Virus record (IMG/VR): IMGVR_UViG_2880505610_000001
Coordinates: 1 to 64,000 of that record
From: a virus
Taxonomy: Duplodnaviria; Caudoviricetes
Length of the DNA stretch: 64,000 nucleotides
Reading direction: 5' to 3' (one strand)
Made by a program: the position numbers and the translations under genes. The notes under the pieces are model-generated. The model ran no database searches. It was not told where the DNA came from and saw only the letters and a list, made by a program, of their open reading frames with translations. Shown here piece by piece: positions 1-64,000 of this stretch (the first letter of the stretch is position 1; each line of letters begins with the position of its first letter).

Positions 1-237
1 GTGAGCGCGGTGCAGGCGCGGCGGCCCAGGCGGCTCGAGCAGCCCCCGCCCGCAGCCGGCACCGTGGAGATGACGCTGCGGGGTTCGAGCCGCGACGTAG
101 ACGCCACGATCGCGCAGATGCGCGAGCTGGGCCTGGTGGTGCGGCACGCGCCGGACCACCCGTACCCGGACCGGGACGGGGTGAGCATCCGCCGGCGGGT
201 GGTCATCGACCGGCGGGAGAAGCCGGGCCGGCCGTGA
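1..237 (+). CDS. hypothetical protein (may be 5' truncated)
   Basis: ORF with high-GC3 codon usage; no motif recognised. Confidence 0.5.
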   Translation: MSAVQARRPRRLEQPPPAAGTVEMTLRGSSRDVDATIAQMRELGLVVRHAPDHPYPDRDGVSIRRRVVIDRREKPGRP

Positions 238-380
238 TGCTTGCCGTCGGGTCGTTGACGTCACCACCCCGGTTGGTGGGGGCCTGGAGCCCGCCCGCCC
301 TTCGGGCCGGAGGTTGGAACGAAGGGCGCGGGGCCGGCAGTGTCCCGCCGAATACCCCGCGCCCTGCGGCCCGGCGGCAG

Positions 381-671
381 CTACTCCCCTGTCTTCTCTT
401 TGCGAGGGCGTGCGTGGATTCCTGTGGGTTCCCCAGATTCGAGTTGCTTGACGCGGCTGAAGTGGACGCCGATGAGTGGCCCAATGGCGCGGTAGCTCAG
501 GCCGGCGGCTCTGAGTTCCTTGACACCGTCTCGTCTGGCCTCGGCAAGGGTGGAGTTCCCTTCGTGGATGGCTTTGAGGGCTTCGGTGGCAGCTTTGGCT
601 CTGACCTGGGGGTCTTCGATCTGGGTGATCTCGGTGATGGCGTCGTGGATGCGTTGGGCGCGCTCGTCCAT
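381..671 (-). CDS. small HTH DNA-binding protein (repressor-like)
   Basis: ARRDGVKELRAAGLSYRAIGPLIGVHFSRVKQL HTH; start taken at MDERAQ; divergent from 773. Confidence 0.75.
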   Translation of the reverse strand: MDERAQRIHDAITEITQIEDPQVRAKAATEALKAIHEGNSTLAEARRDGVKELRAAGLSYRAIGPLIGVHFSRVKQLESGEPTGIHARPRKEKTGE

Positions 672-725
672 GCGCTGATCGTAGAGGTGGGGTCGACGGG
701 TTCTCATCCGGAAGACTTGCATGAT

Positions 726-755
726 GTATAGGTTACCTATACTGTATAGGTAACC
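726..755. promoter_or_regulatory. operator in divergent promoter region
   Basis: Perfect inverted repeat GGTTACCTATAC-T-GTATAGGTAACC (731-755) overlapping near-palindrome GTATAGGTTACCTATAC (726-742); AT-rich. Confidence 0.7.
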
Positions 756-772
756 ACAACGATGGAGACGAG

Positions 773-1018
773 ATGACCGCCATGACCAGCACCGCACACC
801 CCCTGGTCAAGCAGCACGACTTCATCCCCCGCAGGATGCTGATCGGCACGTCCACCCTGCACGCCGACACCTGCTGGACCACCGCCGACGGCTACGTCGT
901 CTACCGCACCGGCGCCTACGCCTACTGGGTGCGGGAGCGGAACGGCCGCTACGCCCGCCAGTCCACCCTCGCCGACGCCCACGCGGACATCGCCTGGCTG
1001 CGCGCAAAGGGGCGCTGA
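773..1018 (+). CDS. hypothetical phage protein
   Basis: GGAG RBS, strong GC3 bias. Confidence 0.7.
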   Translation: MTAMTSTAHPLVKQHDFIPRRMLIGTSTLHADTCWTTADGYVVYRTGAYAYWVRERNGRYARQSTLADAHADIAWLRAKGR

Positions 1019-1093
1019 CGCCCCGCCTCGCCCCAGAACCCCGCGTCAGGGGCGGGACAGGACACCAGATCACGCGAGATCACAGGAGCCCTT

Positions 1094-5214: not shown

Positions 5215-5673
5215 TCACGTGTGCTTGAGCTTGCTCGGCCACACCTCGTGCTTGGGATCCCACCACACAACATGGAAGACGTTCCCCAGTAAGAAGCCGT
5301 ACAGGCGTGGCTCACCCTGCAGCCGAAGACACGAGATCTTCGTCATGTCACCCAGCTGCAGCTCGGTGAGCCGCCCCAGCGCTTCCGATGTCGGGATGGA
5401 CTCGACCTCATAGTGCTTGCCCGGGTAGTCGCTGTTGTTGAAGATCTCATTGATCTTCATCGTCTCGAACTGCCCGAGCCGGCCCATCAGCCAGCACAGC
5501 GTCTCGCCATCGACGTGCCCGAACCCCCACGGGCCCTCATGGTCGACATGGCAGAACCGCCAGCAGATCCGCTCATCCGACGTCTCCGCCCCCGGCAGCA
5601 CGCTGCGCCGCGGAACTTCCTTCGTCTTGATCTCGGGGGTGGAGACGTGCTTCTTAGACTTCTTCTTCGCCAT
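5215..5673 (-). CDS. putative toxin partner of Panacea antitoxin (RelE-like fold suspected)
   Basis: LRLQGEPRLYGFLLGNVFHVVWWDPKHEV C-terminus; overlaps 3' end of DUF4065 gene. Confidence 0.65.
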   Translation of the reverse strand: MAKKKSKKHVSTPEIKTKEVPRRSVLPGAETSDERICWRFCHVDHEGPWGFGHVDGETLCWLMGRLGQFETMKINEIFNNSDYPGKHYEVESIPTSEALGRLTELQLGDMTKISCLRLQGEPRLYGFLLGNVFHVVWWDPKHEVWPSKLKHT

Positions 5674-6124
5674 CGGCGTTCGCCGCAGTGAGGGCGTCGA
5701 AGAACTCGAAGATCTCCTCGTCGAGCAGTTCCTCGCTGCTCCGCTCGAGCAGCACCGCGCCAGCACGCTTGCGGGCGTTCACCCACGGCGCCTCGTTGTG
5801 CGTCATCGTCGACAACTGGTGCGCGGTGTAGTCGCCGAGGCCCGCCAGGACCATGTCAACCGACTCCTGCTCCCCTTCGTCGAGCGCGGCCGGGTCGCCT
5901 GGGATGTCGCCGGCGCTGAGCTGGAAACACCCGCGGTGGCACCGGTACAGGCGCGGGGACACGGGCCCGTTCGCCCACGCCTCGAACCGCTCCGGGAACA
6001 GGGGACGCTCTTCCCACGCCAGGTGGTAGCCGTAGGCGTAGTAGCAGAGCTTCTGCAGCTTCATCGCCGACATCGGCCCGCGAGCCCGCAGGATGTACGC
6101 GGCGACATCATTGATCGCTGCCAT
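5654..6124 (-). CDS. Panacea/DUF4065 (SocA-like) antitoxin
   Basis: MKLQKLCYYA...LFPERFEAWANGPV...LSTMTHNEAPW. Confidence 0.9.
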   Translation of the reverse strand: MAAINDVAAYILRARGPMSAMKLQKLCYYAYGYHLAWEERPLFPERFEAWANGPVSPRLYRCHRGCFQLSAGDIPGDPAALDEGEQESVDMVLAGLGDYTAHQLSTMTHNEAPWVNARKRAGAVLLERSSEELLDEEIFEFFDALTAANADGEEEV

Positions 6125-6486: not shown

Positions 6487-7275
6487 TCACTCCGACAGGG
6501 AGGACGGCGTCCCCAACCAGACCCGGCGACGCGCCCGCCGGCCATAGAGCAGCACCCGATAGACCCGCTTGGCGTCCGGACCACGCCGCATCGGATGCCG
6601 CCGCAACAACTCTGCGGCAACGTGCCTGGTCCTCCCTGACAACGCCCCCAGGTCCGGGCGCCCCTCGTTGTACCTCTCTATCGCCAGCGAGGAATCCTCA
6701 CCGAACGGGCCGCGCCCGTTGCGTGCCCGGACGATCAGCTCTCCGAACTGCCGCAGGTCACTCTGCCGCCGCTTGTAGAACTCATGTCGCGAATCCGTAC
6801 GCAGTTCGGCCCGGCCGAAGTCCAGGACATAGATCCCTCCGTCGGTGCCTACGATCAGGTTCTGTCCGCGGAAGTCGCCGTGTGCAACACCGACCGAGTG
6901 CATCGCCACCAGGCTCGCGGCGAGCCGTATGGCCAGGCGTTGGACCTGAACGTCAGTCAGCTGCCCGCGTTCGGCGATCAAGCCGTCGACGGTAGTGCCC
7001 TGGATGTACTCCATCACGTAGTACGGCCGCTCGCCTGTCGAGTTCGACTCGATGAACTTCGGGACGAATGCCGGGTTGACGGCGCTGAGAGCAACCACTT
7101 CCTTATCCAGAGCGCGATGAGTCTTGCTCTGGCCCACCTGGCTGGAATGGATCGTCTTGATCGCTACCTCGCGCCCGGATCCATCATCCGCGAGGAACGT
7201 CTCGCCCTGCATGCCACTGCCAAGCAGCTTGATCACCTGATAGCGACCAAAGGTCTGCGGAAGATCGGCACTCAT
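6487..7275 (-). CDS. Ser/Thr protein kinase (Hanks-type, atypical)
   Basis: LGSGMQG, VAIK, YVMEYIQG, HGDFRGQN, DFG; no APE motif. Confidence 0.85.
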   Translation of the reverse strand: MSADLPQTFGRYQVIKLLGSGMQGETFLADDGSGREVAIKTIHSSQVGQSKTHRALDKEVVALSAVNPAFVPKFIESNSTGERPYYVMEYIQGTTVDGLIAERGQLTDVQVQRLAIRLAASLVAMHSVGVAHGDFRGQNLIVGTDGGIYVLDFGRAELRTDSRHEFYKRRQSDLRQFGELIVRARNGRGPFGEDSSLAIERYNEGRPDLGALSGRTRHVAAELLRRHPMRRGPDAKRVYRVLLYGRRARRRVWLGTPSSLSE

Positions 7276-9777: not shown

Positions 9778-9887
9778 AGCTGGACCGTAAGCACCCGCGC
9801 AGCCCACGAAGGGGGCTTCGCAGGGCGGACTGGCCCGCGGGTAAGGCGCTCCACCCGGCCCCGCCACGCCCGGCGCCCAGACCTCCC

Positions 9888-10459
9888 GAACCCTTCTCGT
9901 AAGGGTTAGCCGAACCCCCTCAGCAACCCCGTCTGGAGCCCTCACCAGCTCGGCAGCGCAGCACCGACCACGGCACTGAACGGCTCGGCACACCCCTCGA
10001 CCAGGTTCGACTCCGCCCACCGCCTCCGGGATGCCGCGGCAGGCGCGTCGACCAAAGCCCGCACGCCGGAACGTCCTCGCAGGTCAGGGCGCTTTCTAAG
10101 GGTTCCGCTAACCCTTAGCTGAACCCTTCCGGGAACCCCTCCCGGAACCCGGTCCGCAACCCTGATCGGCACCCCCGCAGAACCCTCGCCGCGGCAGGAG
10201 CCGGCCACGAAACGCCAGCCAGCAGCGGCACGACGCCTCCGCCTCCAACACGGCCGCGCCGGCCCGGCCAGCGACCGCCCGACGCCGACCCGGCCGCCGA
10301 GCATCCGTGCAGGTCAGCGCACGTGGAGGTAGGTGCGTGGGAGGGTTGGTGGAAGGGTTACCGGAACCCTTCCGCTAGGGGTTGCCGGAACCCTTCGCCC
10401 GACCCTTCCCAGGGGAAAGGGGAACGTATAGGTAGTTGTTAACGTCTCCCCTTTCCCCT
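9888..10459. repeat. 12-bp-periodic AACCCTT/AAGGGTT array, candidate origin or centromere
   Basis: Three clusters (about 9888-9931, 10098-10187, 10341-10407) then inverted repeat AGGGGAAAGGGGA/TCCCCTTTCCCCT around an AT-richer core. Confidence 0.75.
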
Positions 10460-10600
10460 GATCCCCTTACCCCGGAGCCCCATCGCGCGCGGGCCCGCGC
10501 GCAGCCACGCGCACACGCGAGGCTCGACCGCAAACACGGGCGGAGTCGATCGTCGACGATGGCCGTAGACGACCCCAGAATCGATCACGAGCGACGAAGA

Positions 10601-11709: not shown

Positions 11710-12324
11710 TCACCACACGTTGTTCTCGGGGCTGTAATAGCTCACCTTGACCCGCCGCTCCCAGTGGCCGTCGCCCCCCAGGGAGTCCCCGTTGGGCCGG
11801 CCACACCCACAACTCCACACCTGCTGGTGGCCAGAGCCCTCAACTGGCGGCCAAAACTTGAAGATGATCTCCACGAGGCGCGGCCTCACCTGGCCGGGCG
11901 CCCACGCCTCGATTACGAACTCCATCGCCTCATTCAGCGGCGTGATACTAGAGAGCGCCAGCTCGGTCAGGGACTCCCCGGCACAGCCAAAGGCACGCAC
12001 TCTGTACTGCCGATCCAGTGTGATCGAGCCATAGAGGGCGCCCCCGTTCACATCCCTCTTGAACGCGGCATCGATCGCACTAGGCAGGTTGGGAGCAAGC
12101 TCCTCATGGCGGTACTCCTTCTCCTCGGCACGCCGATCAGCCTCAATCTCACGTAGGTGCCGCGCCTCGGCTGCGGACTCCCCGGCGTGAAGCGCAGAAC
12201 GACCAGCATGGTGAGCTGAACGCTTCGCATACCGAACTGCAACTGTGGCCACCACCAGACTGCCAATGCCAGTAGCAGCGCCCACGCCGCCTATGACCAA
12301 AGCACCCCACTCAGCGCCATTCAT
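11710..12324 (-). CDS. membrane-anchored hypothetical protein
   Basis: N-terminal TM helix and SA..A stalk; ATGA-coupled to rep. Confidence 0.7.
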   Translation of the reverse strand: MNGAEWGALVIGGVGAATGIGSLVVATVAVRYAKRSAHHAGRSALHAGESAAEARHLREIEADRRAEEKEYRHEELAPNLPSAIDAAFKRDVNGGALYGSITLDRQYRVRAFGCAGESLTELALSSITPLNEAMEFVIEAWAPGQVRPRLVEIIFKFWPPVEGSGHQQVWSCGCGRPNGDSLGGDGHWERRVKVSYYSPENNVW

Positions 12325-13112: not shown

Positions 13113-13351
13113 AGGACGCCTCCTGGCCTCGCATTGCGAACGGAGACCGGCGCCACACCGTGGAAGTCCTACCGTAGGACTCAACAACTTGCTACAGTCA
13201 TCACCAGCTACAGGGTGACTGCGCGGTGGTGCAGATCTCCGACTTCAGACAAGTCCCGGCCCTCCACGGCTGGGACTTTGTCGTTTCTCACGCTAATGCA
13301 AAGCGCCTTCAAAGGCCGACCCGACACACCGTTTTTCGGCCGCACATATCA

Positions 13352-13405
13352 CGTGCAACGGGCACACTAAATGCGCAACGCTCATTCCTGGCGTGCAACG
13401 TGCAC
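13352..13405. promoter_or_regulatory. 20-bp-period operator array upstream of rep
   Basis: CGTGCAACGGGCAC, TGCGCAACGCTCAT, CGTGCAACGTGCAC; GCAACG at 13355, 13375, 13395. Confidence 0.6.
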
Positions 13406-50975: not shown

Positions 50976-50978
50976 AGG

Positions 50979-51674: not shown

Positions 51675-52154
51675 TCAGGCCCGTTCCCACACCAGCCCGG
51701 CGCGGACGTTCACGCCCGCCGGCGCGGTCACGCGGATCGCGAACCCCTCGGAGAACGCGCAGTCCGGGGTGTCGCCGAGCGGCCAGTCGTACACCACGAT
51801 CCCGCCCGCGGGCGACACCAGCCACTCCTCCAGCGGCGTCAGCACCGTCGGTTCGCTGGTCCAGTTCTTCCCCGCGGTGACGCCGTGAGTCTGGGCGCGG
51901 CCGTACAGCTGAGCGACCGCCGAGGTGAGCGTGGTGTTGTTGGTGCCCATCGTGCCGTTGGTCGCCCACGTGCAGTAACACACCTCGACCAGCGCGGGCA
52001 CGGCCGTGGCCGTCGTCCCGTCGAAGGACACGCGGACCTTCTTCAGGTCGAGCCCGAACGCGGCGTTGGCGCGGACGCCGAGGACGGTCTTGGCCGCGCC
52101 GCCGGTGAGAGCGACCGCGCCGCCGGTGGTGACGGTGTATCCGGCCTTGGCCAT
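51675..52154 (-). CDS. minor virion protein
   Basis: TGATG coupling; beta-rich. Confidence 0.7.
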   Translation of the reverse strand: MAKAGYTVTTGGAVALTGGAAKTVLGVRANAAFGLDLKKVRVSFDGTTATAVPALVEVCYCTWATNGTMGTNNTTLTSAVAQLYGRAQTHGVTAGKNWTSEPTVLTPLEEWLVSPAGGIVVYDWPLGDTPDCAFSEGFAIRVTAPAGVNVRAGLVWERA

Positions 52155-52459
52155 CAGTCGCTCACCCGGACTCCGGCCAGGTCGTCCCAGGAAGAGTTGA
52201 CCGTGAACTGGATGGCGTCGTCGGGGCTCTCGCCGGTGACCGCCGGGTTGGCCGCGACCGCCCATGTGAACCGGTCGACGAACATTGCCGAGCCGGTCAG
52301 GACGTCGTAGGCCAGGGCCTGCCTCTTGCCCGCAGTGGCATCGCTCATGCCGTCGGGGGCCTCGCCCATGATGTCCTTGGCCGCGGTCACGATCGCCATG
52401 CGGACCCGGTTCCGGAACGCCGGGTCCTCGGCAAGGGCGGCCTGGTCAGCAAATGCCAC
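52154..52459 (-). CDS. hypothetical virion-operon protein
   Basis: AGGAG RBS; DDAIQFTVNSSWDDLAG. Confidence 0.7.
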   Translation of the reverse strand: MAFADQAALAEDPAFRNRVRMAIVTAAKDIMGEAPDGMSDATAGKRQALAYDVLTGSAMFVDRFTWAVAANPAVTGESPDDAIQFTVNSSWDDLAGVRVSD

Positions 52460-52470
52460 ATCGGCTCCTG

Positions 52471-52818
52471 TCAGGTGAGGGTCGCGGTGAGGTTGAGCGT
52501 GTAGGTGCCCTGCGCCCCGAAGGACTCGACGGTGGTGGTGCCGCCGCCGCGGAAGGTTCCGCCCGAGGCCCCGGTCCATGTCCCGCAGTGCGTGACGGTG
52601 GTGCCGGCGGGCACGTCGAACGTCACGCTCGCGGTGACGGTCTTGGATCCCGCCGAGGACGGGTTCCACGTGATCGCCTTCCTGGCGTACGCGGGGGAAC
52701 CGCCCGTCACCTCGTTAGCACCGGTCGTCCCAGGGTCGGCAGTGTGAAGGCTGGCGTGGGTCGCCAACGTGTCGAGGTCGTCGAGGAAGTCGTCACGGGT
52801 TGCTGCGGTGAACGGCAT
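52471..52818 (-). CDS. phage tail fibre-associated protein
   Basis: SLHTADPGTTGANEVTGGSPAYARKAITW...FDVPAGTTVTH. Confidence 0.8.
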   Translation of the reverse strand: MPFTAATRDDFLDDLDTLATHASLHTADPGTTGANEVTGGSPAYARKAITWNPSSAGSKTVTASVTFDVPAGTTVTHCGTWTGASGGTFRGGGTTTVESFGAQGTYTLNLTATLT

Positions 52819-52819
52819 G

Positions 52820-53890
52820 TCAGGCCGCCTCGTAGGTGATCGTGATCGAGAGCTGGTCGTTGTTCGCCCAGGCGAACGGGCCGCTCGAGCCCCACAGGGT
52901 GTTCTCGGTGACGATCTCCACGGCCGTCCAGGAGGTCGCCGAGCGGATCCGGCAGATGCCGTCCCTCACGTTGTTCGCGCTGGCGTCGAAGGTCTCCGCG
53001 CTGCCGATGTGCTCGCCAACACTCAACGCCTTGGCGGCGACGGGCAGGGACACCATGTAGACGCCGGACCCGCCGGACGCCCCGCTAGTGCCGGCCTTGA
53101 TGTTCGCCCGTACCGTGACCATGGGCCCGTACCGGATGTAGGCGCCCTCCCGCAGCGCGCCGGTACCGAGCGCAGGGGTGGAGGTCACCGCAGTCAGGGC
53201 GGGTGTGTACGTCGTCCACGCCGCGCCGCCACCGTTCCGCCGGGGGATCTCGAACCAGGACCCGCCGTTGGCCATCTCGTAGGTGGTGCGGTCGGTCCGG
53301 TAGATCAGCTCCGAGTCGTACCCTGCCGGCGGCCGGGTACTGTCCGATCCCACGAGCGGGTACTTCGAGCTGATCAGCGCAGCGCTGAGCCGGGTGTCGG
53401 TGATATTGCCGTCCTGCACGCTCGACTGCCCCGCCGCCACGCTCACCGTCGCCAGCGAGATCGCCGACGCCGGGACGGCTGGCGTGCCGGAACCGCTGTC
53501 CTCCAGCACCTCCAACGTCCACTCGTAGGTCGACCACGAGCCGTTGTGAAGTTTGTCCTTCACCCGCGCCACCACCCGGTGCGTCCGGGACCCGGTGCCC
53601 GGCGGTGACGGCACCGTCAGGTTCTCCACGGCGGTGGACTGGCACATGTAGTAGCCCTGGTTGGACACGTCGTCGCCGACGATCGCGCAGCGTCCGGGGG
53701 CGATGTCGACCGAGAAGTTCGCTCCAGCCGCCCGCTGAGTCACCTTCAGTGCGCCGTACACCACGTCCGGGGCGACGATGCCTTCCTGATGCATGAGGCC
53801 CGACAGCAGGTCACGGTTGTCCAGAGCGCTGTAGCTGAAGGTCGAGTCGCCCCCGCCAGCCTGCATGTAGAGCGGGCGCTTCAGAGTCAC
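52820..53890 (-). CDS. minor tail protein
   Basis: Follows Dit; P.VPASAISLATVSVAAG...ITDTR; fibre-like C-terminus. Confidence 0.8.
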   Translation of the reverse strand: MTLKRPLYMQAGGGDSTFSYSALDNRDLLSGLMHQEGIVAPDVVYGALKVTQRAAGANFSVDIAPGRCAIVGDDVSNQGYYMCQSTAVENLTVPSPPGTGSRTHRVVARVKDKLHNGSWSTYEWTLEVLEDSGSGTPAVPASAISLATVSVAAGQSSVQDGNITDTRLSAALISSKYPLVGSDSTRPPAGYDSELIYRTDRTTYEMANGGSWFEIPRRNGGGAAWTTYTPALTAVTSTPALGTGALREGAYIRYGPMVTVRANIKAGTSGASGGSGVYMVSLPVAAKALSVGEHIGSAETFDASANNVRDGICRIRSATSWTAVEIVTENTLWGSSGPFAWANNDQLSITITYEAA

Positions 53891-53921
53891 AGTCAGCCTC
53901 CAGAGCAGGGTGAAGGGAGAG

Positions 53922-54788
53922 TCACAGCCACGTGGAGCGGTACTCGATCGCGGCGACCGCACCACCAGCGGCAGATAGGGGCGCGTAGCGGATCAGCTGG
54001 TCACCCGGTTCGATCCGCCACCAGCTGGTGGTGGCGAAGTCCAGGTAGTTCAGCCGGGAGGCGGTACTCATTGACAGCAGGTACGCCGTCCGGTCGCGGG
54101 TGTCGATCTCGACGTACTCGCCGGCGCCAAGGGTCAGGGCCTCGGTAAACACGATCTGCTCGCCGGTGGTCTCGTTGATCAGCCGCGGCCCCGAGCAAGG
54201 TCCGTACAGGCGGGCGATGAAGTGTGACGGGACCGACCCGAGATTGCTCACCTCGCTCGCTCCCGTCGAGGTTGTCGCGTCCCAGGTGATCGGGAAGGTG
54301 ATCGGGAACGTCAGCCCGACTGTGGTTGGAACGTCGGCGCTGATCTCAGGCAGGGTGGTCAGCTCTGCCGCCTCCCAGACGCCGTCCGGGGCACGCCATT
54401 GCAGTTGGACCTCGCGGGCCTGGGAAGCGACGTAGCCGGTGTAGGGCTCCGACCACTGGTCCACCCGCAGCCTGATGCGCCGTTCCTGCGCCCACCCGGT
54501 GTCCGTGACGTACAGGTAGGGGCGTGACCTCGGGTGCAGGAACGACTTCATCTGGTCGATGACCTGTTCGCACTCGAAGATCTCGTCCTTGAGGACCACC
54601 ACGTCCAGTGACACCGCGCGGCTCCCGAACAGCAGGGTGGTGTCGCGTTCACCGTCGTCGTCCACGCGGCTTTCGCTGACGTCGCGGATCGCCGGCGAGG
54701 ACACCTGCAGCGATTGCGGGAGGATGTGCCGGGACGGGTGGAGGATCAGCTCTCTTGCCCCGTCGACCAGCCGGACTCCCGTCTTCAC
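53922..54788 (-). CDS. distal tail protein (Dit)
   Basis: After TMP; LTFPITFPITW, N.GSVP, GP...PRL.N.TTGE, WWRIEPG. Confidence 0.85.
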   Translation of the reverse strand: MKTGVRLVDGARELILHPSRHILPQSLQVSSPAIRDVSESRVDDDGERDTTLLFGSRAVSLDVVVLKDEIFECEQVIDQMKSFLHPRSRPYLYVTDTGWAQERRIRLRVDQWSEPYTGYVASQAREVQLQWRAPDGVWEAAELTTLPEISADVPTTVGLTFPITFPITWDATTSTGASEVSNLGSVPSHFIARLYGPCSGPRLINETTGEQIVFTEALTLGAGEYVEIDTRDRTAYLLSMSTASRLNYLDFATTSWWRIEPGDQLIRYAPLSAAGGAVAAIEYRSTWL

Positions 54789-54801
54789 CCGCGGCCCCCC
54801 T

Positions 54802-57800
54802 TTACTCGCCGAAGGTGGACGCCCGGGCGGCGAAGTCCAGCCGCTGCGCCACCGAGTCGACGTCGACGGTGTCGTGGATGTGCTGGTGCTCGACGTTCAT
54901 CAGCGTCCCGATCCGCGGGCCGTCGCCGCCCCGGGTGCTGCCGGAGAGCTTGGACCACTGCGCGTCGGTGAAGACGGGCTCGGGGGCGCCGGTGCCGTTG
55001 TAGACCAGGCTCGTGCCGGTCGGCAGCCAGCCTCCTGAGTCGAACGTCAGCGTCCCCTTCGCCAGCTCGCGGTACATGCTGGTCAGAGGGGCGGTCCGGT
55101 CGGCAGGGTCGAAGTTGCGCTGCCCGAACACCTTCGGGTCGATGACGCCGCCGAGCGCGAACCCCGGCCGCAGCACCGTCGCGGGGTTGGAGCGGGTGCC
55201 GCGCTTGACCCTGGGGCCTTCGTTACCTCCGATGGTGCGGTACGTCGACCCGCCGAGCGGCTTCTCGATCAGGTTGACGTGGCTGTTGGACCCATACGTT
55301 GCCAGGTCCCCAGGCCGGCCTGCGGAGGTGGAGATGTGCTTCATGCGGGCGTTGAACGTCGCCACCGCAGCGGTCGGGTAGCCGGGGTAGAACTTCCCGG
55401 CCTTGGCGTCCTTCACCGCCGTGGAAACGAACAACGCGCACCAGGGCGTACCCGCGGGCCACCCCCATTGGCGGGTGAACCGGTTGTTGTTGTCCATGCC
55501 GCGGTCGTCGCCGACACCGATGTACCGGCGGGCCGCAGCGACCACGCCCTTGGCGTCCCCGCCGATCTTCGCCTCGAGCGGACCGAAATAGGTCATGATC
55601 TTGCTGATGAGGGCGTGCGGGATCGCCGAGACCAGCTTCCCGAACGCGCCCATTCCGCCGGTGGTCTTGTCCGACAGCGCCAGCAGCGGCCCGAACACAC
55701 GCTGCGCGGACTTCTTCAGCCCGTCAGCGAACAGGCCCTTGGCGGCGTTCTTGAACTTGTCGACCACGCCACCAAGGAAGAAGTTGCCGCCGAACGCCCC
55801 GGTCATGAACCTGGCGGCGGCGCCGACTCCGCCGCGGCGTGCAGCAGCGTTGGCCGCGTCCACGAACCCGGGCCCGACCGCTCGTGTCCACTCCGGCCGC
55901 ATGATGGCCTCGCCGCCGGATACCCCGATGAGGCCGATGTCGCGGCCAGGGGTGTAGCCCGGGTAGATGCCGCCGGTGTTGAACCCGCGGATCGGGTCGA
56001 GCCTCCCCACGCCCGGGACCAGCGCGGCCACAGCGTTCCAGACACCGACGATGCCCTTGTTGAACACGGTGTTGACCACGAACGAGACGGGTGCCTTGGC
56101 CGCGTCCTTCAGCTTGTCCCAGGCTTTACGGATCGCGTCGACGCCGACCTTGAACGCCCTGCCCAGCTTCCCCACCGCCGACTTGATCCCATCGAAGGTG
56201 GGGCGGATGAAGGTGTTCCACACGTACCGGATGGAGGATCCGATCGCGTTCCACACCGGCCGGATGATCGTGTTGTACAGCCACCTCACCGCCGGAGCGA
56301 CGTAGGTGCGCATCACGGTCACGAACATGTTCAGCACAGGCCGGATGAACGTGTTGTAGGCCCATCGGATGACCGTGGCGATGCCGCGGAACGCTGGCGC
56401 GATTACCGAGCTCCACAGCCACTTGACGATCCCAGCGACGATCTTGAACTGGAGGATCAGCGGCGCGATCAGCACCACAGCAATGAACGAATACAGCCAC
56501 CGGGCAACGGTGGCGATGCCACGGAACGCCGGGGCGATCGCGTTGCTCCACAGCCACTGCGCCCACCGACCCACCGTCTGAAGGGCAACCCAGATGCCGT
56601 GGAAGATCGGCTGGATGACGCTCGAGACCCATGTCACCACGGAAACCATCAGCCGGAACACGGGCAGGAGCAGCCCCACCACGACCTGCCAGTACCGCAT
56701 CACGATGGTGATCGCCAACCGCAGCACCGGGACCAGGTAGCCGACAAGCACGGCAACGAGTTGCACGAGCGGCGGGATCACCGGAGCGATGGCCAGCACA
56801 AGCTGGGAGAACATCGGCAAGATCGGTGTCAGAGCCGGCAGCAGCGACGCCACCGCCAGCACGATCTGCTGCAGAGCCGGCAGTGAGGCCACCAGAGCGG
56901 ACACCAGAGCGCCACCGATCTCGACCGCGGTCTGGGCGATCAAGTTGATGATCGGGGTCAGGATCGGCAGCAGACCTTGCGCCAGTTGCGCAATAGCCAG
57001 GCCCAGCGGAACCAGGATCGGTGTCAACGCCCCAACGACCCGGCCGAACGCGGCTACCAGGACGTTCACCAACGGGATGAGCGCCATCACCACCGGATGG
57101 AGGCCCTGAAGAAGCTGCGCGACGATCCCACCGATGATGGGGAGGATCGGTGCTAGAGCCCGGCCGATCGCGCCGACCGCCTGGAAGAACGCGGTCATCG
57201 CCTGCTGCGCTGCCGCGGTCTTCAGGAATGCGTTGAGCTGGTTCAGCATCGGGCCCAGCACGCCGAAAAGACCCGACCCTGCGGCGCGTGCAGCGGTGAA
57301 GATGCTGTTAATGACCCCGCCCAGATCGACCAGCAGCGCACCAACCTGCTGAACGACGGCAAGGCCCGCGTTAATGATCTGCGTGACGCGCCCGGAGGCG
57401 GCCAGATTCGACATCCACTGCCCGAACCTGGTGGCCACATCCGCTGCGCCGCCAGCGAGCCGCTCCATGGACGAGGTACCTGCCGAGGCCATGTCCCGCA
57501 GTCCGCGAAGCACCGGATTGATCGCGGGCACCAGCGACCGCACCGAGGCGCGCAGCGCCCCAAAAACCGTGTTCAGCGCCCTGACGCTCTGCGACTCCCG
57601 AGCAAACACCAGGGCCTGACGGGCGGCAGCACCGTACTCGGTCGCCAGGCCACGAACCCCTGCTCGCAGGGGGCCGGTGAGCACCTGCGCGGTGCTGCGC
57701 AACTGGCCCGTCAGCTTTGCGAAGAACGCGTCCTGGGCGGCGTGGCGTATGCCCACCAGTTCCGGTCGGAGGGCCCGAAGTTCCCGTGCTGCCGCTTGAG

Positions 57801-58494
57801 CAGCTGGCGACAAACCCTCAAGAGACTTCTCGAACTTCTCAGCGTCCTCACCGAGAGCCGCCTTGAACGCGTCGCCAACCCCGGACAATGCCAGCTTGAG
57901 AGTCCCAACGGCGGCGACCGTGCCCCCGATCACGGCAGGGAGCGCGGCCGTCAGACCGATGACCGGGGCAAGGTTCGCGGCTAGCTGGATCAACCCTGCG
58001 CCGGCACCGATCGCTGCCGCAGCCAACGCCGGGAGCGGCAGCCCCAGGATGCCGCGGCGAAGCCCGCCGAGGCTGGAAGAGGCGCTGGTGGCGCTCCCAC
58101 TCAGGCGCAGCAGGCTGGTGATACTGCGATCAGCGTCGGTGCGGACGTTGATCGTGATCGTGCGCTGATCCAGCCTTCGCAGTATCTGCTCGAGCGCGAC
58201 CAGTTCAGCCGGGGTGTTGCCGAAATCGATGGTGACGCGGGCCTGGACGTGACGGCCGTCGATCTCCTCCAGGGCTTTCTTCAGCCTCGTCAACCGGGCC
58301 AGAGCCTGGCCCATGTCGACGCGGATGCGGACCGGCTTGATCTCCTTCTCGATGCCTTCCTGGATCCGCTTGCCAGCCTCCCTCCCGATCCTGGAGGCAT
58401 CAGGGAGGATCTGCGCGCGCACCCTCGATGCAAAGTCACGCACCGATGGCACGACGTCGACCGAGACCGACCCGACACTGATGGAGGCCACCAC
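54802..58494 (-). CDS. tape measure protein with C-terminal CHAP-like domain
   Basis: 1230 aa Ala/Leu-rich with Trp-periodic repeats; SGGEAIMRPEW; PWCALFVS...PGDL...HV...GGN; FDSGGWLP. Confidence 0.95.
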   Translation of the reverse strand: MVASISVGSVSVDVVPSVRDFASRVRAQILPDASRIGREAGKRIQEGIEKEIKPVRIRVDMGQALARLTRLKKALEEIDGRHVQARVTIDFGNTPAELVALEQILRRLDQRTITINVRTDADRSITSLLRLSGSATSASSSLGGLRRGILGLPLPALAAAAIGAGAGLIQLAANLAPVIGLTAALPAVIGGTVAAVGTLKLALSGVGDAFKAALGEDAEKFEKSLEGLSPAAQAAARELRALRPELVGIRHAAQDAFFAKLTGQLRSTAQVLTGPLRAGVRGLATEYGAAARQALVFARESQSVRALNTVFGALRASVRSLVPAINPVLRGLRDMASAGTSSMERLAGGAADVATRFGQWMSNLAASGRVTQIINAGLAVVQQVGALLVDLGGVINSIFTAARAAGSGLFGVLGPMLNQLNAFLKTAAAQQAMTAFFQAVGAIGRALAPILPIIGGIVAQLLQGLHPVVMALIPLVNVLVAAFGRVVGALTPILVPLGLAIAQLAQGLLPILTPIINLIAQTAVEIGGALVSALVASLPALQQIVLAVASLLPALTPILPMFSQLVLAIAPVIPPLVQLVAVLVGYLVPVLRLAITIVMRYWQVVVGLLLPVFRLMVSVVTWVSSVIQPIFHGIWVALQTVGRWAQWLWSNAIAPAFRGIATVARWLYSFIAVVLIAPLILQFKIVAGIVKWLWSSVIAPAFRGIATVIRWAYNTFIRPVLNMFVTVMRTYVAPAVRWLYNTIIRPVWNAIGSSIRYVWNTFIRPTFDGIKSAVGKLGRAFKVGVDAIRKAWDKLKDAAKAPVSFVVNTVFNKGIVGVWNAVAALVPGVGRLDPIRGFNTGGIYPGYTPGRDIGLIGVSGGEAIMRPEWTRAVGPGFVDAANAAARRGGVGAAARFMTGAFGGNFFLGGVVDKFKNAAKGLFADGLKKSAQRVFGPLLALSDKTTGGMGAFGKLVSAIPHALISKIMTYFGPLEAKIGGDAKGVVAAARRYIGVGDDRGMDNNNRFTRQWGWPAGTPWCALFVSTAVKDAKAGKFYPGYPTAAVATFNARMKHISTSAGRPGDLATYGSNSHVNLIEKPLGGSTYRTIGGNEGPRVKRGTRSNPATVLRPGFALGGVIDPKVFGQRNFDPADRTAPLTSMYRELAKGTLTFDSGGWLPTGTSLVYNGTGAPEPVFTDAQWSKLSGSTRGGDGPRIGTLMNVEHQHIHDTVDVDSVAQRLDFAARASTFGE

Positions 58495-61306: not shown

Positions 61307-61310
61307 CCGG

Positions 61311-61727
61311 TCACCACCCCGCCTCAAGGTCGACCCAGCCGCCGCGCGGGTCGTCCCGGTCGGGATCCCACTCCTGCGGCCAGGTCACCTCCGGGTCGGC
61401 GTCTGCCGGTGTCGGGTCCACCGTAAACGCCCCACCCCGCCCAGCGAGGCGCTGCAAGGTCCGCCGCTCGTCCCGGGTCATGTACAGGCCCGCCTGCGGA
61501 CGCTGCACGCTCACCGGCCCGACCGTCTCGTACGCCACGCCCTGCGGGTTGGCGTACGCCCGGCCGGCGACGGCCAGCACCACCGCCGACGCCGCCTCCG
61601 GAAGCGGGGTGACGATCGACTCTGCCAGCAGGATCGCCTGCTCGATCATCAACTCGGCGCGGGCACCGTCGATCTCGGACAGCCCCAGATACAGGGCAAG
61701 GTCCTCTGCGGTGACGTCGACCGGCAC
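61311..61727 (-). CDS. head-to-tail adaptor
   Basis: V.GRAYANPQG...ETVGP...GLYMTRDERRTL. Confidence 0.85.
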   Translation of the reverse strand: MPVDVTAEDLALYLGLSEIDGARAELMIEQAILLAESIVTPLPEAASAVVLAVAGRAYANPQGVAYETVGPVSVQRPQAGLYMTRDERRTLQRLAGRGGAFTVDPTPADADPEVTWPQEWDPDRDDPRGGWVDLEAGW

Positions 61728-61731
61728 GAGC

Positions 61732-62889
61732 TCACCCCTTCGACGTGACCGCCTCGACCGCCGTGCACCACTCCGCCAGGTCCGCGGCCGGGTCCAGTTC
61801 CTTCGCCCGGGCCAGGGACCGCTCGGACGCCGCGGCCCACTGCGCGGGGTCGGTGAGCGCCTGCACCGCCTCCACCCACGCGTCCACGTCACCGCGTTCG
61901 GCGAAGATCCCGGCCTCTCCCAGGCATTCGGCGAGACCGGTCGTGGGCGCGGCGACCACCGGGATCCCCGACGCCATCGCCTCCACCGCCACCCGGCCCC
62001 ACGACTCGCTCGCAGACGGGACCAGCAGGATCCGGGTGCGGGCATACACCTCGTCCCGCATCCGCTCGCCCGGCATGTGCTCGACGACCTCCACGTTCGG
62101 CAGACCGCCGCGGCGTTCGATCTGCTGCCCGTAGGCGCCCTTGACGCCCAGGAACCTCAGATCGGGGAGCCGTTCGGCGACCTGCCAGAACAGGGCCCCG
62201 CCCTTGTCGGCGTTGAGGTTGATCAACGTGACGTGGTCGCCCGGAGTGGTGCGGTAGTCGTCGCCCAGTACCGGCGGGCGAACCACGATCGACTGTTCCG
62301 GTCGCAGCGCCGGGGTGTACTCGCAGAAGAACGCCTCGGCCTCCGCCTGCATGTGCAGGCTGTTGTACACCGCCAGCGACACCGCGCCCCGCCCGATGTT
62401 CTTGAAGACCACCGGGGCGGTGTTGTGCGCCAGCGCCACGAACGGGCGTCCCATCCCCCGCGCCAACGCGCCGGCGGACGGGACGTTCTCATGGTGGGCG
62501 ATGATCACATCGGCGCTCTTGGCCGCGGCACCGAAGTCCTGCCGGGCCGCGTACGGCACCACGTGCACGCCGTCGACCTGGTACGGGGCCCGGTCGGGCG
62601 AGTACCGCGACAGCCACACCGACACTTCGTGGCCGCGTGCCACCAGCGCCCGCAGCATCGAATGCAGCATCCATTCCGACCCGGCGTTGTGCCGGGGCGG
62701 GTAGGCGTGGACGCGCGCCACGACGTTCAGCGGCGCCGTGGCCCGGCCGAGCCCCTCGAACACCGACACCGCCTGCGCCGCTGACGCATCCGGGGTGGCG
62801 GTCTTCTTCTTGGTGGTGCCCGGCCGGGAACGCCGCTGAGGCGACGCCCTACGCTGCCGCGGCGACGCGGGAACGTCGGTGTCGGTCAC
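61732..62889 (-). CDS. GT4-family glycosyltransferase
   Basis: YPP..NAGSE..L..L..RGHEV; KG; PS.SESWGRVAVEAMASGIPVVA. Confidence 0.9.
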   Translation of the reverse strand: MTDTDVPASPRQRRASPQRRSRPGTTKKKTATPDASAAQAVSVFEGLGRATAPLNVVARVHAYPPRHNAGSEWMLHSMLRALVARGHEVSVWLSRYSPDRAPYQVDGVHVVPYAARQDFGAAAKSADVIIAHHENVPSAGALARGMGRPFVALAHNTAPVVFKNIGRGAVSLAVYNSLHMQAEAEAFFCEYTPALRPEQSIVVRPPVLGDDYRTTPGDHVTLINLNADKGGALFWQVAERLPDLRFLGVKGAYGQQIERRGGLPNVEVVEHMPGERMRDEVYARTRILLVPSASESWGRVAVEAMASGIPVVAAPTTGLAECLGEAGIFAERGDVDAWVEAVQALTDPAQWAAASERSLARAKELDPAADLAEWCTAVEAVTSKG

Positions 62890-63842
62890 GAACCGACACC
62901 GTCGGCGGTGTAGGTCACGAACGCGTCGGCGTCGCCCATGACGAAGCCGTAGAACGCCTCCGCCAGCAGCAGCACCAGGTTCTCCTGGAACGCCGAGTGG
63001 ACGCCGCCTTCCTCGTCCACGTAGGTCGCCTCGCTGGAGATGCGGACGGTGATGTCCATCCCGATGCCGTAGGCGGCCTGCGACCAGTCGCCGCCGACCG
63101 CGCGAAGCCCAGTGTCGGCGCTGGAGGACTGGCGGCGCTGCTTGCCCGACACCCCACGCGAGTACGCCAGCGGCTCTCCGATCAGGGTGCCGCCCATCGC
63201 CTGGTTCAGGCCCGGGGTGGTGGTGTCGACGAAGATCGGCCGGCCGTTGGCGTCGGTCGCCAGCATCAGCTTCGGCTTCAGCCGCGGGTCAGCGACGGTG
63301 CCGGTGTAGTCCCAGTCGTCGTCGACGACCATGGCCATGCCGTTGACCAGGTCCGCCCACAGGCCGCCGGAGGTCTGCGCCGCGGTGTCGAGTTCGACGG
63401 TGTTGGTGGTGGAGGCCAGGTAGTCGCCGAACGGGCCGGCCGCGCCCTTCATCGTCTTGCCGTGGATCGCGGCGTGGTCGAAGGCCCGCGCGAACGCGGT
63501 CGGCAGGTCCCGCTGCAGCTGCGTCCACAGGCCGGCGGCGTTGGTCCGCACGACCTCTTCCGACACCGGGATCAGCACCGCGATCTTCTTCGGCGTCATC
63601 TGCTTGACGTCGATCCCGCCGCTGGACAACGGCTTGCGCGCCCCGGAGCCGACCCAGTCGGCGGTGGGCACGTCCAGTGGGATCGGAATGGAGGTGTTGG
63701 CGTCGATGGACAGCGGCGCGCGCTGCGCCAGCGACATGATCGCCGACTGCTCCACCGACTTCTCGAAGATGGGACCCGCCAGCGTCCGCGGCAGGAGGTT
63801 GCTGTCGATATCCGACAGCAGGATCGGGTCGGTGGTGGCCAC
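62886..63842 (-). CDS. major capsid protein (HK97 fold)
   Basis: KKIAVLIPVSEE...AFARAFDHAAIHG...D.NGRPIF...GDWSQ..YG...FQENLVLLLAE. Confidence 0.95.
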   Translation of the reverse strand: MATTDPILLSDIDSNLLPRTLAGPIFEKSVEQSAIMSLAQRAPLSIDANTSIPIPLDVPTADWVGSGARKPLSSGGIDVKQMTPKKIAVLIPVSEEVVRTNAAGLWTQLQRDLPTAFARAFDHAAIHGKTMKGAAGPFGDYLASTTNTVELDTAAQTSGGLWADLVNGMAMVVDDDWDYTGTVADPRLKPKLMLATDANGRPIFVDTTTPGLNQAMGGTLIGEPLAYSRGVSGKQRRQSSSADTGLRAVGGDWSQAAYGIGMDITVRISSEATYVDEEGGVHSAFQENLVLLLAEAFYGFVMGDADAFVTYTADGVGS

Positions 63843-63856
63843 CGGTCACCCCTCTC

Positions 63857-64000
63857 TCAGCGGCCCTTGCTCTTCAGCAGCCGCGAATTGACGAACCCCG
63901 CGAACTCGTCCGCGGGGTCCTTGGCTCTGGTCTGGTTGGCGCCCGATGCCTGCGTCCGGTCCGGCGCCGGGCGGCGCCGCTCCGGTTCGGCAGGCTTGAG
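63857..64000 (-). CDS. capsid scaffolding protein, C-terminal fragment
   Basis: LKPAEPERRRPAPDRTQASG...DPADEFAGFVNSRL immediately upstream of capsid gene. Confidence 0.75.
   Translation of the reverse strand, partial: LKPAEPERRRPAPDRTQASGANQTRAKDPADEFAGFVNSRLLKSKGR

Follow-up and report, generated by a model that had tools for sequence, protein, structure and literature searches.

The 64,000-nucleotide stretch analyzed here (the window) covers the left arm of a 106.5-kb prophage together with its lysis, tail and capsid genes. As read from its sequence, and with somewhat better than even confidence, this prophage belongs to a temperate siphovirus whose excised dsDNA would be either packaged or pumped by a TraB-like operon. 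In this genome the element is an integrated serine-integrase prophage and not a plasmid, a reading that follows from its chromosomal position, its serine integrase and the fact that ParA and ParB were not found in it. The reading of the virion genes and the TraB-like operon as one mobile unit is supported, since a single att pair surrounds both and their linkage is kept in relatives.

Location and Boundaries of the Element

The window (G000:C1:4296515-4360514) lies mid-chromosome on a single 8.99-Mb contig; the host is a Spirillospora-type actinomycete. Positions 1..64000 form the left ~60% of the insertion, which extends from attL at window -1451 to attR at window-equivalent 105017. Three related species (G002, G009, and G017) retain an empty attB, in which -1451 is joined directly to 105017. 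The attB site is inside a cysteine-synthase/CBS-like gene, with an att core of approximately TGGGCC and inverted arms on the phage side. Both attL and attR are intact. The GC content across the insertion is 0.68, down from 0.73, and is lower still (0.63-0.65) at 4-16 kb and 30-36 kb.

The earlier note had taken this DNA for a host-gene-free replicon with no arm-domain integrase. The window is in fact chromosomal, and a large serine integrase of 519 aa, with Resolvase, Recombinase and Zn-ribbon domains and 30-34% identity to actinophage serine integrases, is encoded beyond it at window-equivalent 103465-105024, abutting attR. A phiC31 gp3-like RDF (1.4e-42) is also found to the right of the window. 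IS elements and housekeeping genes, which the note had reported as missing, were indeed not seen in the window. The island was found to contain neither a ParB_N domain nor a ParA-type Walker A, and between the virion module and the tra region there is no att site or integrase.

Virion and Lysis Genes

The siphovirus capsid, tail and lysis genes described in the earlier note are confirmed, all on the minus strand. The head module includes an HK97-type major capsid protein (62886-63842), whose gene is adjoined by that of a GT4 glycosyltransferase (61732-62889), and the head-tail connectors (60047-61727); the tail tube is encoded at 59387-59983. The tail module (47783..58494; weak Prophage_tail match) contains tail-tip and baseplate genes, Dit and the tape measure. 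The 1230-aa tape-measure-sized protein (54802-58494) is homologous to the TMP-position genes of the closest relative, G098, which is another Spirillospora species (43% identity), and of the plasmid NZ_CP109578 (28%), while Dit (53922-54788) matches SPP1_Dit at 2.3e-6. The lysis cassette (44513..46767; 64-66% identity in G098) consists of a holin-like protein with four transmembrane segments in a TM scan (44513-44869), a CHAP+PG_binding endolysin (45370-46401) and two small genes. The terminase and the SPP1-type portal, together with DnaB and the methylases, lie outside the window, to the right of its edge; TerL is 63-67% identical to that of phages SF1, SF3, and VWB.

The TraB-Like, Putative Transfer Operon

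A module resembling the transfer regions of plasmids and AICEs occupies 14 kb of the plus strand (15971..30060) and comprises ~30 genes, most of which overlap (4-bp overlaps in the gene calls). The operon is shown to be conserved and, as judged from its upstream DNA, palindrome-controlled. A perfect 32-bp palindrome with two copies of GACTAGTC (15938..15969; self-match of 32 nt at 100%) overlaps its promoter, and G098 retains this palindrome with an identical 1-nt insertion in each arm. The operon core (20949-26819) is kept in G098, L022, L026, G116, and G118.

A WhiB-family regulator is encoded within the operon (18396..18731, +; PF02467, 9.1e-20), and WhiB is likewise located upstream of the TraB-like gene in the Streptomyces plasmid L008 and in L022, L023, and L026. 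The adjacent gene (18728..20251, +) encodes a protein of 507 aa with 50% identity in G098, which bears on the Spd function claimed earlier. Its membrane topology, with four N-terminal TM segments, and a language-model feature search (Atlas; DUF2637 clusters 0.94, HTH_SpdB_C cluster 0.86) point to a SpdB2/DUF2637-like protein, but it has no Pfam, PHROG or NCBIfam match, and the Spd assignment stays tentative. Three genes of 395, 116, and 186 aa (22201..24364, +) are always directly upstream of the translocase; they are kept in G098, L022, L026, and G118 and have no family matches in Pfam, PHROG or NCBIfam. The distal genes of the operon span 27536..29666 (+) and, according to Pfam, encode a MazG-like protein (27536-27823), a DUF3307 protein (28215-28658) and a Nudix hydrolase (28920-29666), the last of which matches the pZL12.76c region.

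The predicted FtsK/TraB-like dsDNA translocase (24361..26490, +; 709 aa) begins with a helical N-terminal region; its motor domain contains Walker A (GVQGSGKT) and Walker B (VIDEWP), and a winged-helix-like domain forms the C terminus. The earlier assignment to FtsK/TraB holds for the fold, as a Foldseek search with the AF2 model (pLDDT 75) places the FtsK motor 6t8g first (E 1.7e-13), followed by TcpA and EccC. It does not hold at the family level: Pfam FtsK_SpoIIIE gives no match, and the only NCBIfam match is plasmid_TraB at 17.6 bits, against a cut-off of 800 bits.

An accessory function in the phage, such as superinfection exclusion, secretion through an EccC-like ATPase, or the handling of phage DNA when the host septates or sporulates, is a rather unlikely alternative to transfer. 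An EccC-like ATPase could act on the small helical products of upstream genes, the three conserved genes directly before the translocase match no family, and EccC and EssC match its fold at E 1e-8 to 1e-10. In addition, PHROGs classes FtsK/SpoIIIE-like proteins of phages as morons without an assigned role (phrog_1358), and no clt/TRS repeat set was identified. However, EccC comes after both the FtsK motor and the coupling protein TcpA in the fold search, and a single ATPase domain followed by a winged helix, with FtsK_gamma (PF09397) present in three homologs, fits DNA recognition. Transfer also agrees with the synteny to streptomycete plasmid tra regions, in which WhiB and DUF2637 precede a 695-aa translocase homolog, and with the Nudix gene at the end of the operon, as in AICEs.

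Replication, Regulators and Cargo of the Left Arm

The iteron-bearing initiator of the earlier note stands in part. A phage O-like replication initiator is encoded at 12321..13187 (-; phrog_1032, 1e-12), with an HTH_36 match of 25.8 bits that is only just over the cut-off, but its gene contains only two 22-bp tandem repeats (12562-12605), and the AACCCTT array is separate. This non-coding AACCCTT/AAGGGTT array with a 12-bp period (9885..10460; array proper 9885-10410) is the only cluster of the motif within the island, precedes a perfect 14-nt inverted repeat, and is a candidate origin or other protein-binding array. The motif is not met with again in G098 or G116, and the array is not conserved beside the translocase; the initiator has no homolog in G098, G116 or L022.

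An operator motif shared between 13.4 kb and 41 kb, also claimed previously, is borne out by the exact 14-mer CGTGCAACGTGCAC at 13392(+) and 41064(-). Upstream of the initiator gene, two copies of the operator-like 14-mer CGTGCAACG(T/G)GCAC are placed 40 bp apart (13352..13405, +), and an exact copy in reverse complement is present at 41064-41077. At ≤2 mismatches the 14-mer has 6 matches against 1.09 expected, and none of 100 shuffles reached 6.

A regulatory cluster (13459..15859; Pfam; 67-86% identity in G098) encodes an HD phosphohydrolase (13459-14100, -), a DUF397 protein (14097-14309, -), a DUF6879 protein (14281-14862, -) and a WhiJ-like XRE-DUF5753 regulator (14864-15859, +). Pfam also detects two XRE-DUF5753 regulators (38821-39648 and 40138-40980, both -), a DUF397 protein (39907-40116, -) and a HATPase_c_2 anti-sigma-like protein (41210-41515, +). 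These genes and the operator-like site at 41064-41077 are grouped in 38821..41515.

What remains of the three TA pairs proposed earlier is, as candidates, one TA-like pair with a Panacea antitoxin and the XRE-DUF5753/DUF397 pairs. The former (5215..6124, -) consists of a SocA/Panacea antitoxin-domain protein (5654-6124, -; PF13274, 2.5e-16) and a partner with a weak MAG6450 match only (5215-5673, -). Cargo further includes a Ser/Thr protein kinase similar to the defence kinase PD-T4-6 (6487..7275, -; Pkinase 8.6e-20; PADLOC PD-T4-6 1e-28) and a low-GC Schlafen/AlbA_2-domain protein (30798..32162, +; PF04326, 3.9e-9). The Panacea pair and the Schlafen gene are both missing from G098. A Ro60 (TROVE + vWA) orthologue is encoded at 36267..37892 (+; PF05731, 5.6e-17).

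The Cre-like recombinase and its putative crossover site are borne out, and form a candidate resolution module (32989..35164, +). It comprises an inverted-repeat site of the 11-6-11 type with a 6-nt spacer (32989-33040), an Xer/Cre-type tyrosine recombinase (33264-34313, +) and an endonuclease VII whose true start is uncertain (ORF 34091-35164, +). For the recombinase, identity is 34% to pZL12.36c and 30.5% to its counterpart in NZ_CP109578; EndoVII shares 48-52% with pZL12.35c. The module is missing from G098, which keeps the transfer operon. Plasmid-type maintenance, as the earlier note had it, is not upheld: because the rep gene and iterons, the Cre-like recombinase and the Panacea pair are missing from G098, they are, by this comparison, variable cargo.

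The same genes would suit a true phage-plasmid as read by the earlier note, normally autonomous like P1 or pZL12, of which the chromosomal copy is incidental or one of two states. An O-like initiator with internal repeats plus a separate repeat array, a recombinase that, like the one of pZL12, is accompanied by EndoVII and has a site close by, and a TA-like pair would be expected of such a replicon. PhiNon1, moreover, occurs both integrated and as a circle (~17 copies), and one relative is a circular or terminally redundant contig of 159.7 kb. This explanation is nevertheless improbable, as the assembly is one contig in which intact attL and attR flank the element, which encodes a serine integrase and an RDF. 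In addition, the island has neither ParB_N nor ParA-type Walker A, and the closest relative is without rep, recombinase and TA-like pair.

Linkage of Virion and Transfer-Like Genes in Relatives

The reading as one integrated mobile unit is consistent with the arrangement in relatives. G098 carries a ~103-kb syntenic island (identities: TraB-like protein 68%, Ro60 82%, TerS 80%, TerL 49%), in which the operon-plus-virion layout is collinear despite 25-86% protein divergence. The linkage is also present in IMG/VR viral contigs of 91-160 kb. UViG_3300035086_000100 (99 kb) contains the operon, terminase, serine integrase and RDF, and in UViG_3300028800_000061 (159.8 kb) the translocase gene spans a 150-nt end overlap. 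It is retained as well in NZ_CP109578, a 92-kb plasmid of Streptomyces sp. NBC_01369 that carries ParAB and ~17.5 kb of collinear backbone DNA common to pZL12. Here, capsid (74% identity), GT4 (56%), connectors (50-63%) and tube (53%) are in the same order, and the portal is 64% identical. The translocase aligns to the 757-aa Tra-position protein of this plasmid with an hhalign probability of 98%, whereas its alignment to pZL12.71c is marginal (11.5%).

A composite island would consist of a ~60-kb prophage (44-105 kb) and an independent AICE- or plasmid-derived element (~9-35 kb), lodged within the prophage or next to it, that move separately and are linked by accident. It would account for the AICE gene set of the left arm (Rep, HD, XRE, FtsK-like Tra, Nudix), the tyrosine recombinase at 33 kb, the two stretches of lowest GC and the mosaic gene content. 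It is highly improbable, however, given that everything lies within a single attL/attR pair and that neither internal att-like direct repeats nor a tRNA was found. The collinear layout in G098, its recurrence in IMG/VR contigs and NZ_CP109578, and the retention of the operon in G098 without the tyrosine recombinase also argue against it.

Comparison with Known Systems

The plasmid-phage pZL12/phiZL12 (GQ919031, 90.4 kb; relatives pSLE1 and NZ_CP109578) is described as a single Streptomyces replicon that replicates as a plasmid through repA, has a locus for conjugal transfer and also runs a lytic phage cycle (Zhong et al., 2010, J Bacteriol 192:3747; PMC3583192, PMC4487206, PMC5431353). The combination that the earlier note considered uncharacterized thus has a precedent, and the head module shares 56-74% identity with its counterpart in a pZL12-related plasmid. 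The present element shares with the pZL12 group a siphovirus virion module and FtsK-like tra operon in one replicon of ~90-106 kb, an Xer/Cre-type recombinase accompanied by EndoVII, and the adjacency of the GT4 and capsid genes. By contrast, it uses a serine integrase and a gp3-like RDF, is without ParAB, has a translocase barely alignable to pZL12.71c, carries its tra operon beyond the lysis genes instead of beside the terminase, and resides in a Spirillospora-like host, not in Streptomyces.

PhiNon1 (Nonomuraea gerenzanensis, NZ_LT559120, 59 kb), a plasmid-phage element likened to pZL12 by its authors, is also an integrating phage-like element with a terminase and a distant translocase homolog (24% identity, E 4e-15). 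Its host presumably belongs to the same order as the present one. However, PhiNon1 is half the size, its terminase is only 23% identical, and its 50-bp att is at a tRNA-Val gene.

AICEs span ~11-17 kb in the best-characterized examples and are described as having Nudix (Pif) as a hallmark gene (PMC2440964). Like AICEs (pSAM2, SLP1, pMEA300) and Streptomyces TraB plasmids (pSVH1, pIJ101), the left arm combines an FtsK-like Tra and small membrane Spd-like genes with a Pif-like Nudix gene, an HD phosphohydrolase, an XRE regulator and a Rep whose gene contains repeats. Maintenance in the integrated state is a further likeness to AICEs, which differ in being without virion genes and in their usual insertion into tRNA genes by a tyrosine integrase. 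The present translocase also falls far under the cut-off of the curated TraB model. With phiC31/phiBT1-type actinophages the element shares a serine integrase beside attP, a gp3-like RDF, insertion into a host ORF and a siphovirus late operon, and in packaging it resembles SF1, SF3, and VWB. Its genome is roughly double the length of those of phiC31/phiBT1-type phages, and has an extra ~45-kb arm with the transfer-like operon, Ro60 and regulators.

Proposed Mechanism

A phiC31-type large serine integrase inserted the element into the cysteine-synthase-family gene. In the scheme proposed here, excision would yield a circular double-stranded genome. This genome may be packaged into virions or, by a second route, a TraB-like hexamer with Spd-like partners may pump the dsDNA into neighbouring hyphae. 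The XRE-DUF5753/DUF397/DUF6879 module may act as the switch, and persistence would depend on integration, not on ParAB partition as in pZL12. Such a two-route scheme would match both the plasmid-phage pZL12 and the AICEs. The pairing of virion and transfer functions has already been shown experimentally in pZL12, and the present element would be an integrative member of that known kind.

The integrated element and its boundaries

The window corresponds to G000:C1:4296515-4360514 of the genome that carries it and lies inside one 8,992,097-bp contig; it is therefore chromosomal and not a separate replicon. The earlier note had proposed a candidate conjugative phage-plasmid; in this genome the element is not an autonomous replicon, being integrated mid-chromosome between attL and attR in an assembly consisting of a single contig. 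From window-equivalent -1.5 kb to 105 kb, GC content is lowered from ~0.73 to ~0.68. Both flanks of this island were used as queries against 30 relatives, and in G002:C15, G009:C39 and G017:C1 the DNA equivalent to window -1454/-1451 is joined straight to that equivalent to window 105017/105023, forming an uninterrupted attB. The intact target gene in G002 encodes a 364-aa cysteine-synthase/CBS-family PLP enzyme. A core of ~TGGGCC is common to the junction sequences, and the arms on the element side are mutual inverted copies (GGCAGACTAC and GTAGTCTGCC). These attL and attR boundaries (window-equivalent -1451 and 105017) mean that the insertion is 106.5 kb long and that the window holds just its left 60%. 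Long direct repeats flanking or subdividing the island were not found, nor were internal att repeats. The island has no tRNA gene in or beside it, the sole one within the 244 kb scanned being located ~57 kb to its left.

The start of a 519-aa integrase ORF (L021:966-2525, minus strand) overlaps attR. Its product includes the Resolvase (PF00239) and Recombinase (PF07508) domains and a Zn-ribbon (PF13408, below cut-off), and shows 30-34% identity with the serine integrases of actinophages. A recombination directionality factor (RDF) resembling phiC31 Gp3 (PF18897, 1.4e-42) is encoded at window-equivalent 94147-95175. With an att-adjacent integrase, a short core, an empty attB and a gp3-like RDF, the element is a temperate actinophage of the large-serine-integrase (phiC31) type. 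Separately, the left flank in G000 contains ~3.5 kb between two conserved genes (L001:13706-17195, window-equivalent ~-6300 to -2800) that is missing at the same position in G002, G009 and G017, and constitutes a distinct small indel by the prophage.

The virion module

Between 102 kb and 45 kb the genes form a single long minus-strand array. To the right of the window it encodes the Gp3-like RDF, a DnaB helicase, C5 and N6/N4 methylases, an RNA ligase, GT2 glycosyltransferases, a methyltransferase, TerS (Terminase_7), TerL, an SPP1-type portal and VG15. Within the window it continues with the capsid, a GT4 glycosyltransferase, connectors, tail tube, a 1230-aa tape measure, Dit, tail-tip proteins, a CHAP+PG_binding lysin and a 4-TM holin-like protein. 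All called virion and lysis genes are open, and across the element the virion set is complete (TerS, TerL, portal, VG15, MCP, connectors, TTP, TMP, Dit and lysin). The capsid, tail and lysis genes previously noticed in the window are thus present as described, and the packaging and portal genes lie beyond its edge. TerL is 63-67% identical to that of the Streptomyces phages SF1, SF3 and VWB; a megablast of 21-22 kb pieces against phage and plasmid collections gave no match.

The GT4 gene (61732-62889, minus strand) is flanked by the capsid gene on one side and by the head-tail connectors on the other. The same arrangement beside the capsid is found in the plasmid-phage NZ_CP109578 (84918-85907, 56% identity) and in G098, the closest relative (50%). 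At 70.4-74.4 kb lie two or three GT2 genes and one for a methyltransferase; together with GT4 they point to virion glycosylation as a conserved trait.

Transfer-like operon and putative operators

The plus-strand operon (15971-30060, 14 kb) encodes a WhiB protein, a four-TM protein of 507 aa, further small membrane proteins, three conserved proteins without a family match, a 709-aa translocase, and MazG-like, DUF3307 and Nudix proteins. The language-model clusters closest to the 507-aa protein are DUF2637 (0.94) and HTH_SpdB_C (0.86), which serve as a lead and not as a test.

A perfect 32-bp palindrome (15938-15969) covers the operon promoter. The GACTAGTC site is present in the intergenic region between the XRE and DUF6879 genes (14935), at the XRE stop (15854) and twice inside the palindrome. 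G098 retains all these positions (G098:C4 572913, 573832 and ~573915-573945, loci L010), and its palindrome shows GACTTAGTC in both arms. Such a matched 1-nt insertion in the two arms argues for a real, if putative, operator. An operator-like 14-mer, the motif that the earlier note had described as shared between 13.4 kb and 41 kb, is confirmed as exact copies at 13392(+) and 41064(-). Also present is a perfect 25-nt inverted repeat (17183-17207 vs 41458-41482, E 9e-5), tying a small operon gene (17030-17401) to a HATPase_c_2 gene (41210-41515) 24 kb apart.

Among the early and late genes lies that of a 295-aa protein without a family match (window-equivalent 76147-77034; L002:12147-13034, minus strand). 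Its homolog in the viral records G116 and G118 and at locus L026 is encoded downstream of the TraB-like gene, at a distance within ~2-3 kb, and the protein may represent a transfer-module component that has been displaced.

The 709-aa translocase

The translocase (24361-26490, plus strand) contains the motifs GVQGSGKT (Walker A) and VIDEWP (Walker B). Its AlphaFold (AF2) model rests on 19 homologs and has a pLDDT of 75. The best Foldseek matches of this model are FtsK motor domains (6t8g; E 1.7e-13, TM 0.57-0.60 by target), followed by the pCW3 coupling protein TcpA and by EccC. Long helices, candidates for an N-terminal membrane anchor, are predicted at residues 55-187, none of which exceeds the Kyte-Doolittle threshold of 1.6. 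At the C-terminal end, residues 655-707 form three helices and a β-hairpin (pLDDT 84-93), a putative winged-helix domain for DNA recognition. FtsK_gamma (PF09397) is found in three homologs of the translocase, and the protein itself matches no Pfam family at E<=0.01, FtsK_SpoIIIE included. The only NCBIfam match is plasmid_TraB (NF041214), at 17.6 bits against a cut-off of 800 bits (E 1.1e-3). The FtsK-like fold and motifs, taken with these sub-threshold family scores, place the protein as a predicted FtsK-superfamily DNA translocase of TraB-like architecture, outside the curated TraB family.

The protein is also 26-27% identical to hypothetical or wHTH-annotated proteins of Streptomyces plasmid tra regions, one of which has the order WhiB, DUF2637 and a 695-aa translocase homolog. 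A tblastn search against the phage collection gave no match. The 62 homologs retrieved are mostly derived from metagenome assemblies. In a sample of 401 species genomes of the order, 6 have the family at E<=1e-30, the close relatives being just G000 and G098; G019, one of the six, is unpublished and supports none of the claims made here.

The left arm and its variable cargo

Genes of the left arm were assigned by Pfam, PHROG and NCBIfam searches. Gene calling by host codon usage overlooked most of the low-GC cargo genes, and a model trained on the island overlooked the rep gene. The arm includes a TA-like Panacea-antitoxin pair (5215-6124) and a 262-aa PD-T4-6-like Ser/Thr kinase (6487-7275, minus strand; PADLOC PD-T4-6 models, 1e-28), which is probably prophage-borne anti-phage cargo. 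An AACCCTT array with a 12-bp period (9885-10410) follows, within a 1.7-kb stretch containing no called genes. It is the sole dense repeat array and was considered as a candidate clt, the locus of repeated 8-bp sequences that a TraB recognises; this was dropped, the motif being lacking in G098 and G116, which keep the translocase.

An O-like replication initiator (12321-13187; phrog_1032, 1e-12) contains two internal 22-bp repeats. These repeats, with the 12-bp-period array nearby, may be iterons of a plasmid-type initiator, but would be no less characteristic of a lytic phage origin; the initiator is absent from G098. HD phosphohydrolase, DUF397, DUF6879 and XRE-DUF5753 genes (13459-15859) lead up to the operon. 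Downstream of the operon are found a Schlafen-domain gene, a tyrosine recombinase with an inverted-repeat site and EndoVII, Ro60 and a methyltransferase, and then two more XRE-DUF5753/DUF397 units with the HATPase_c_2 protein. The Ro60 gene (TROVE+vWA; 36267-37892, plus strand) shares its prophage with a T4-type RNA ligase (window-equivalent 77231-78310; L002:13231-14310, minus strand), and no Rfam family reaches its gathering threshold anywhere in the window, so that the Y RNAs proposed beside Ro60 are not confirmed.

G098 has no counterpart of Rep, of the tyrosine recombinase and its EndoVII, or of the AACCCTT array, and it lacks the Panacea pair, the kinase and the Schlafen gene. No ParA-type Walker A occurs among the island proteins and no ParB_N domain in the island, the sole ParB_N of the genome lying at 7.04 Mb. 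The plasmid-type maintenance functions (rep, recombinase and Panacea pair) on which half of the phage-plasmid argument had relied are thus variable cargo. Judged by gene conservation, the backbone is the transfer-like operon with its regulator, and not the plasmid-maintenance genes.

Linkage of the operon and virion genes in relatives

In gene order, four concordant lines of evidence show that the linkage of the virion genes with the putative transfer operon is not accidental. The linkage recurs in G098, in viral contigs and in the plasmid NZ_CP109578. G098, a genus-mate (Spirillospora sp. NPDC048911 by NCBI protein name), carries a collinear ~103-kb low-GC island. Identities there reach 86% for XRE, 90% for the first operon gene, 68% for the TraB-like protein, 82% for Ro60 and 66% for the lysin; among the virion proteins they are 43% for TMP, 50% for GT4, 25% for the capsid, 49% for TerL and 80% for TerS, and the early genes also match.

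A 98.6-kb NCBI contig (JAXOUH010000333.1) shares the operon core and encodes a 60%-identical translocase homolog. Three further relatives are IMG/VR viral contigs of 91 kb, 99 kb and 159.8 kb. In the 99-kb contig, which has serine integrase and RDF homologs, the operon lies 7.5 kb from the terminase. The large subunit of this terminase (UViG_3300035086_000100; L023/L024 19523-22127) has 920-940+ aa and a weak LAGLIDADG_3 match, and probably contains an intein. The ends of the 159.8-kb contig overlap by 150 nt inside the translocase gene, so that this contig is circular or terminally redundant. Searches of the three records for the portal protein and for Pfam Phage_capsid gave no match; their head modules either differ or are too remote.

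Comparison with known systems

The characterised system closest in kind is pZL12/phiZL12 (GQ919031; Zhong et al., 2010), whose features are taken here from citing papers and its GenBank annotation. [quoted passage not shown] NZ_CP109578, the 92-kb plasmid of Streptomyces sp. NBC_01369, includes ParAB, PhlD, a GntR-tra operon, a tyrosine recombinase and a virion module. Over 17.5 kb its DNA is collinear with that of pZL12, the longest segments being 67-79% identical, although the Tra proteins of the two are unrelated by BLASTP. The present element is related to it both in the virion module (capsid 74%, portal 64%, GT4 56% and tail tube 53% identity) and in the translocase (hhalign probability 98%). 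By contrast, the partition proteins ParA/ParB of pZL12, pSLE1 and NZ_CP109578 are not found in the element. PhiNon1 of Nonomuraea, which is described as a pZL12-like element both integrated and circular, carries a distant homolog of the translocase.

The typical gene set of AICEs, as far as the account in PMC2440964 goes, consists of an FtsK-like Tra, a Nudix protein (Pif), an HD phosphohydrolase and an XRE/GntR regulator, with a Rep that binds repeats within its own gene. The left arm holds this whole backbone set. However, AICEs are small, contain no virion genes and have their own integrase and att site (usually in a tRNA gene), whereas the element measures 106.5 kb, with a full virion module and no tRNA. 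The explanation that an AICE is nested in a prophage was rejected due to the lack of internal att sites and the conserved synteny. The description that fits the element best is that of an integrative variant of the pZL12 kind that lacks ParAB; in other words, it is a prophage of the phiC31 type joined to a transfer module like that of AICEs.

The pairing of virion and transfer functions is already known, from one studied plasmid, pZL12. To this the analysis adds an integrative, ParAB-less form and relatives that are 91-160 kb viral contigs from soil metagenomes. It also shows that the operon, and not the plasmid-maintenance genes, is the conserved part.

Proposed mechanism and significance

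The conjugative phage-plasmid proposed in the earlier note is partly confirmed as an observation and partly supported as an interpretation: the linkage of virion genes and transfer-like operon holds in relatives, whereas the element is not a plasmid in this genome and its maintenance genes are variable cargo. The structural description of the element, comprising its integration, gene content and conserved linkage, can be held with high confidence. That it actually transfers independently of virions is, from its predicted genes, close to an even bet, leaning slightly against.

In the proposed mechanism, the integrase and RDF would excise the element, after which the circular dsDNA would either be packaged or be pumped into neighbouring hyphae in TraB-like fashion. 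Spd-like proteins would then spread it within the mycelium, and the Nudix protein would provide donor immunity. Control would be exerted by the XRE/DUF397/DUF6879 module via the GACTAGTC palindrome.

Tentatively, and at somewhat less than even odds, these elements may form a 90-160 kb temperate siphovirus lineage of mycelial actinomycetes (Spirillospora, soil metagenome UViGs and Streptomyces plasmid-phages) with a TraB/Spd-type dsDNA transfer operon as its backbone. The integrated prophage would then also be an AICE-like conjugative element capable of virion-free spread, and a WhiJ-like XRE/DUF397/DUF6879 switch would pick the route. If this is true, spread through and between mycelia would bypass receptor-based phage resistance.

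The new serine integrase, with its attP/attB pair and RDF, could be of use as a tool for integration in actinomycetes. With a functional operon, the prophage would have two horizontal routes, infection and hyphal conjugation. This would change how the host range, resistance and spread of actinomycete phages are modelled, and would blur the line between prophages and AICEs.
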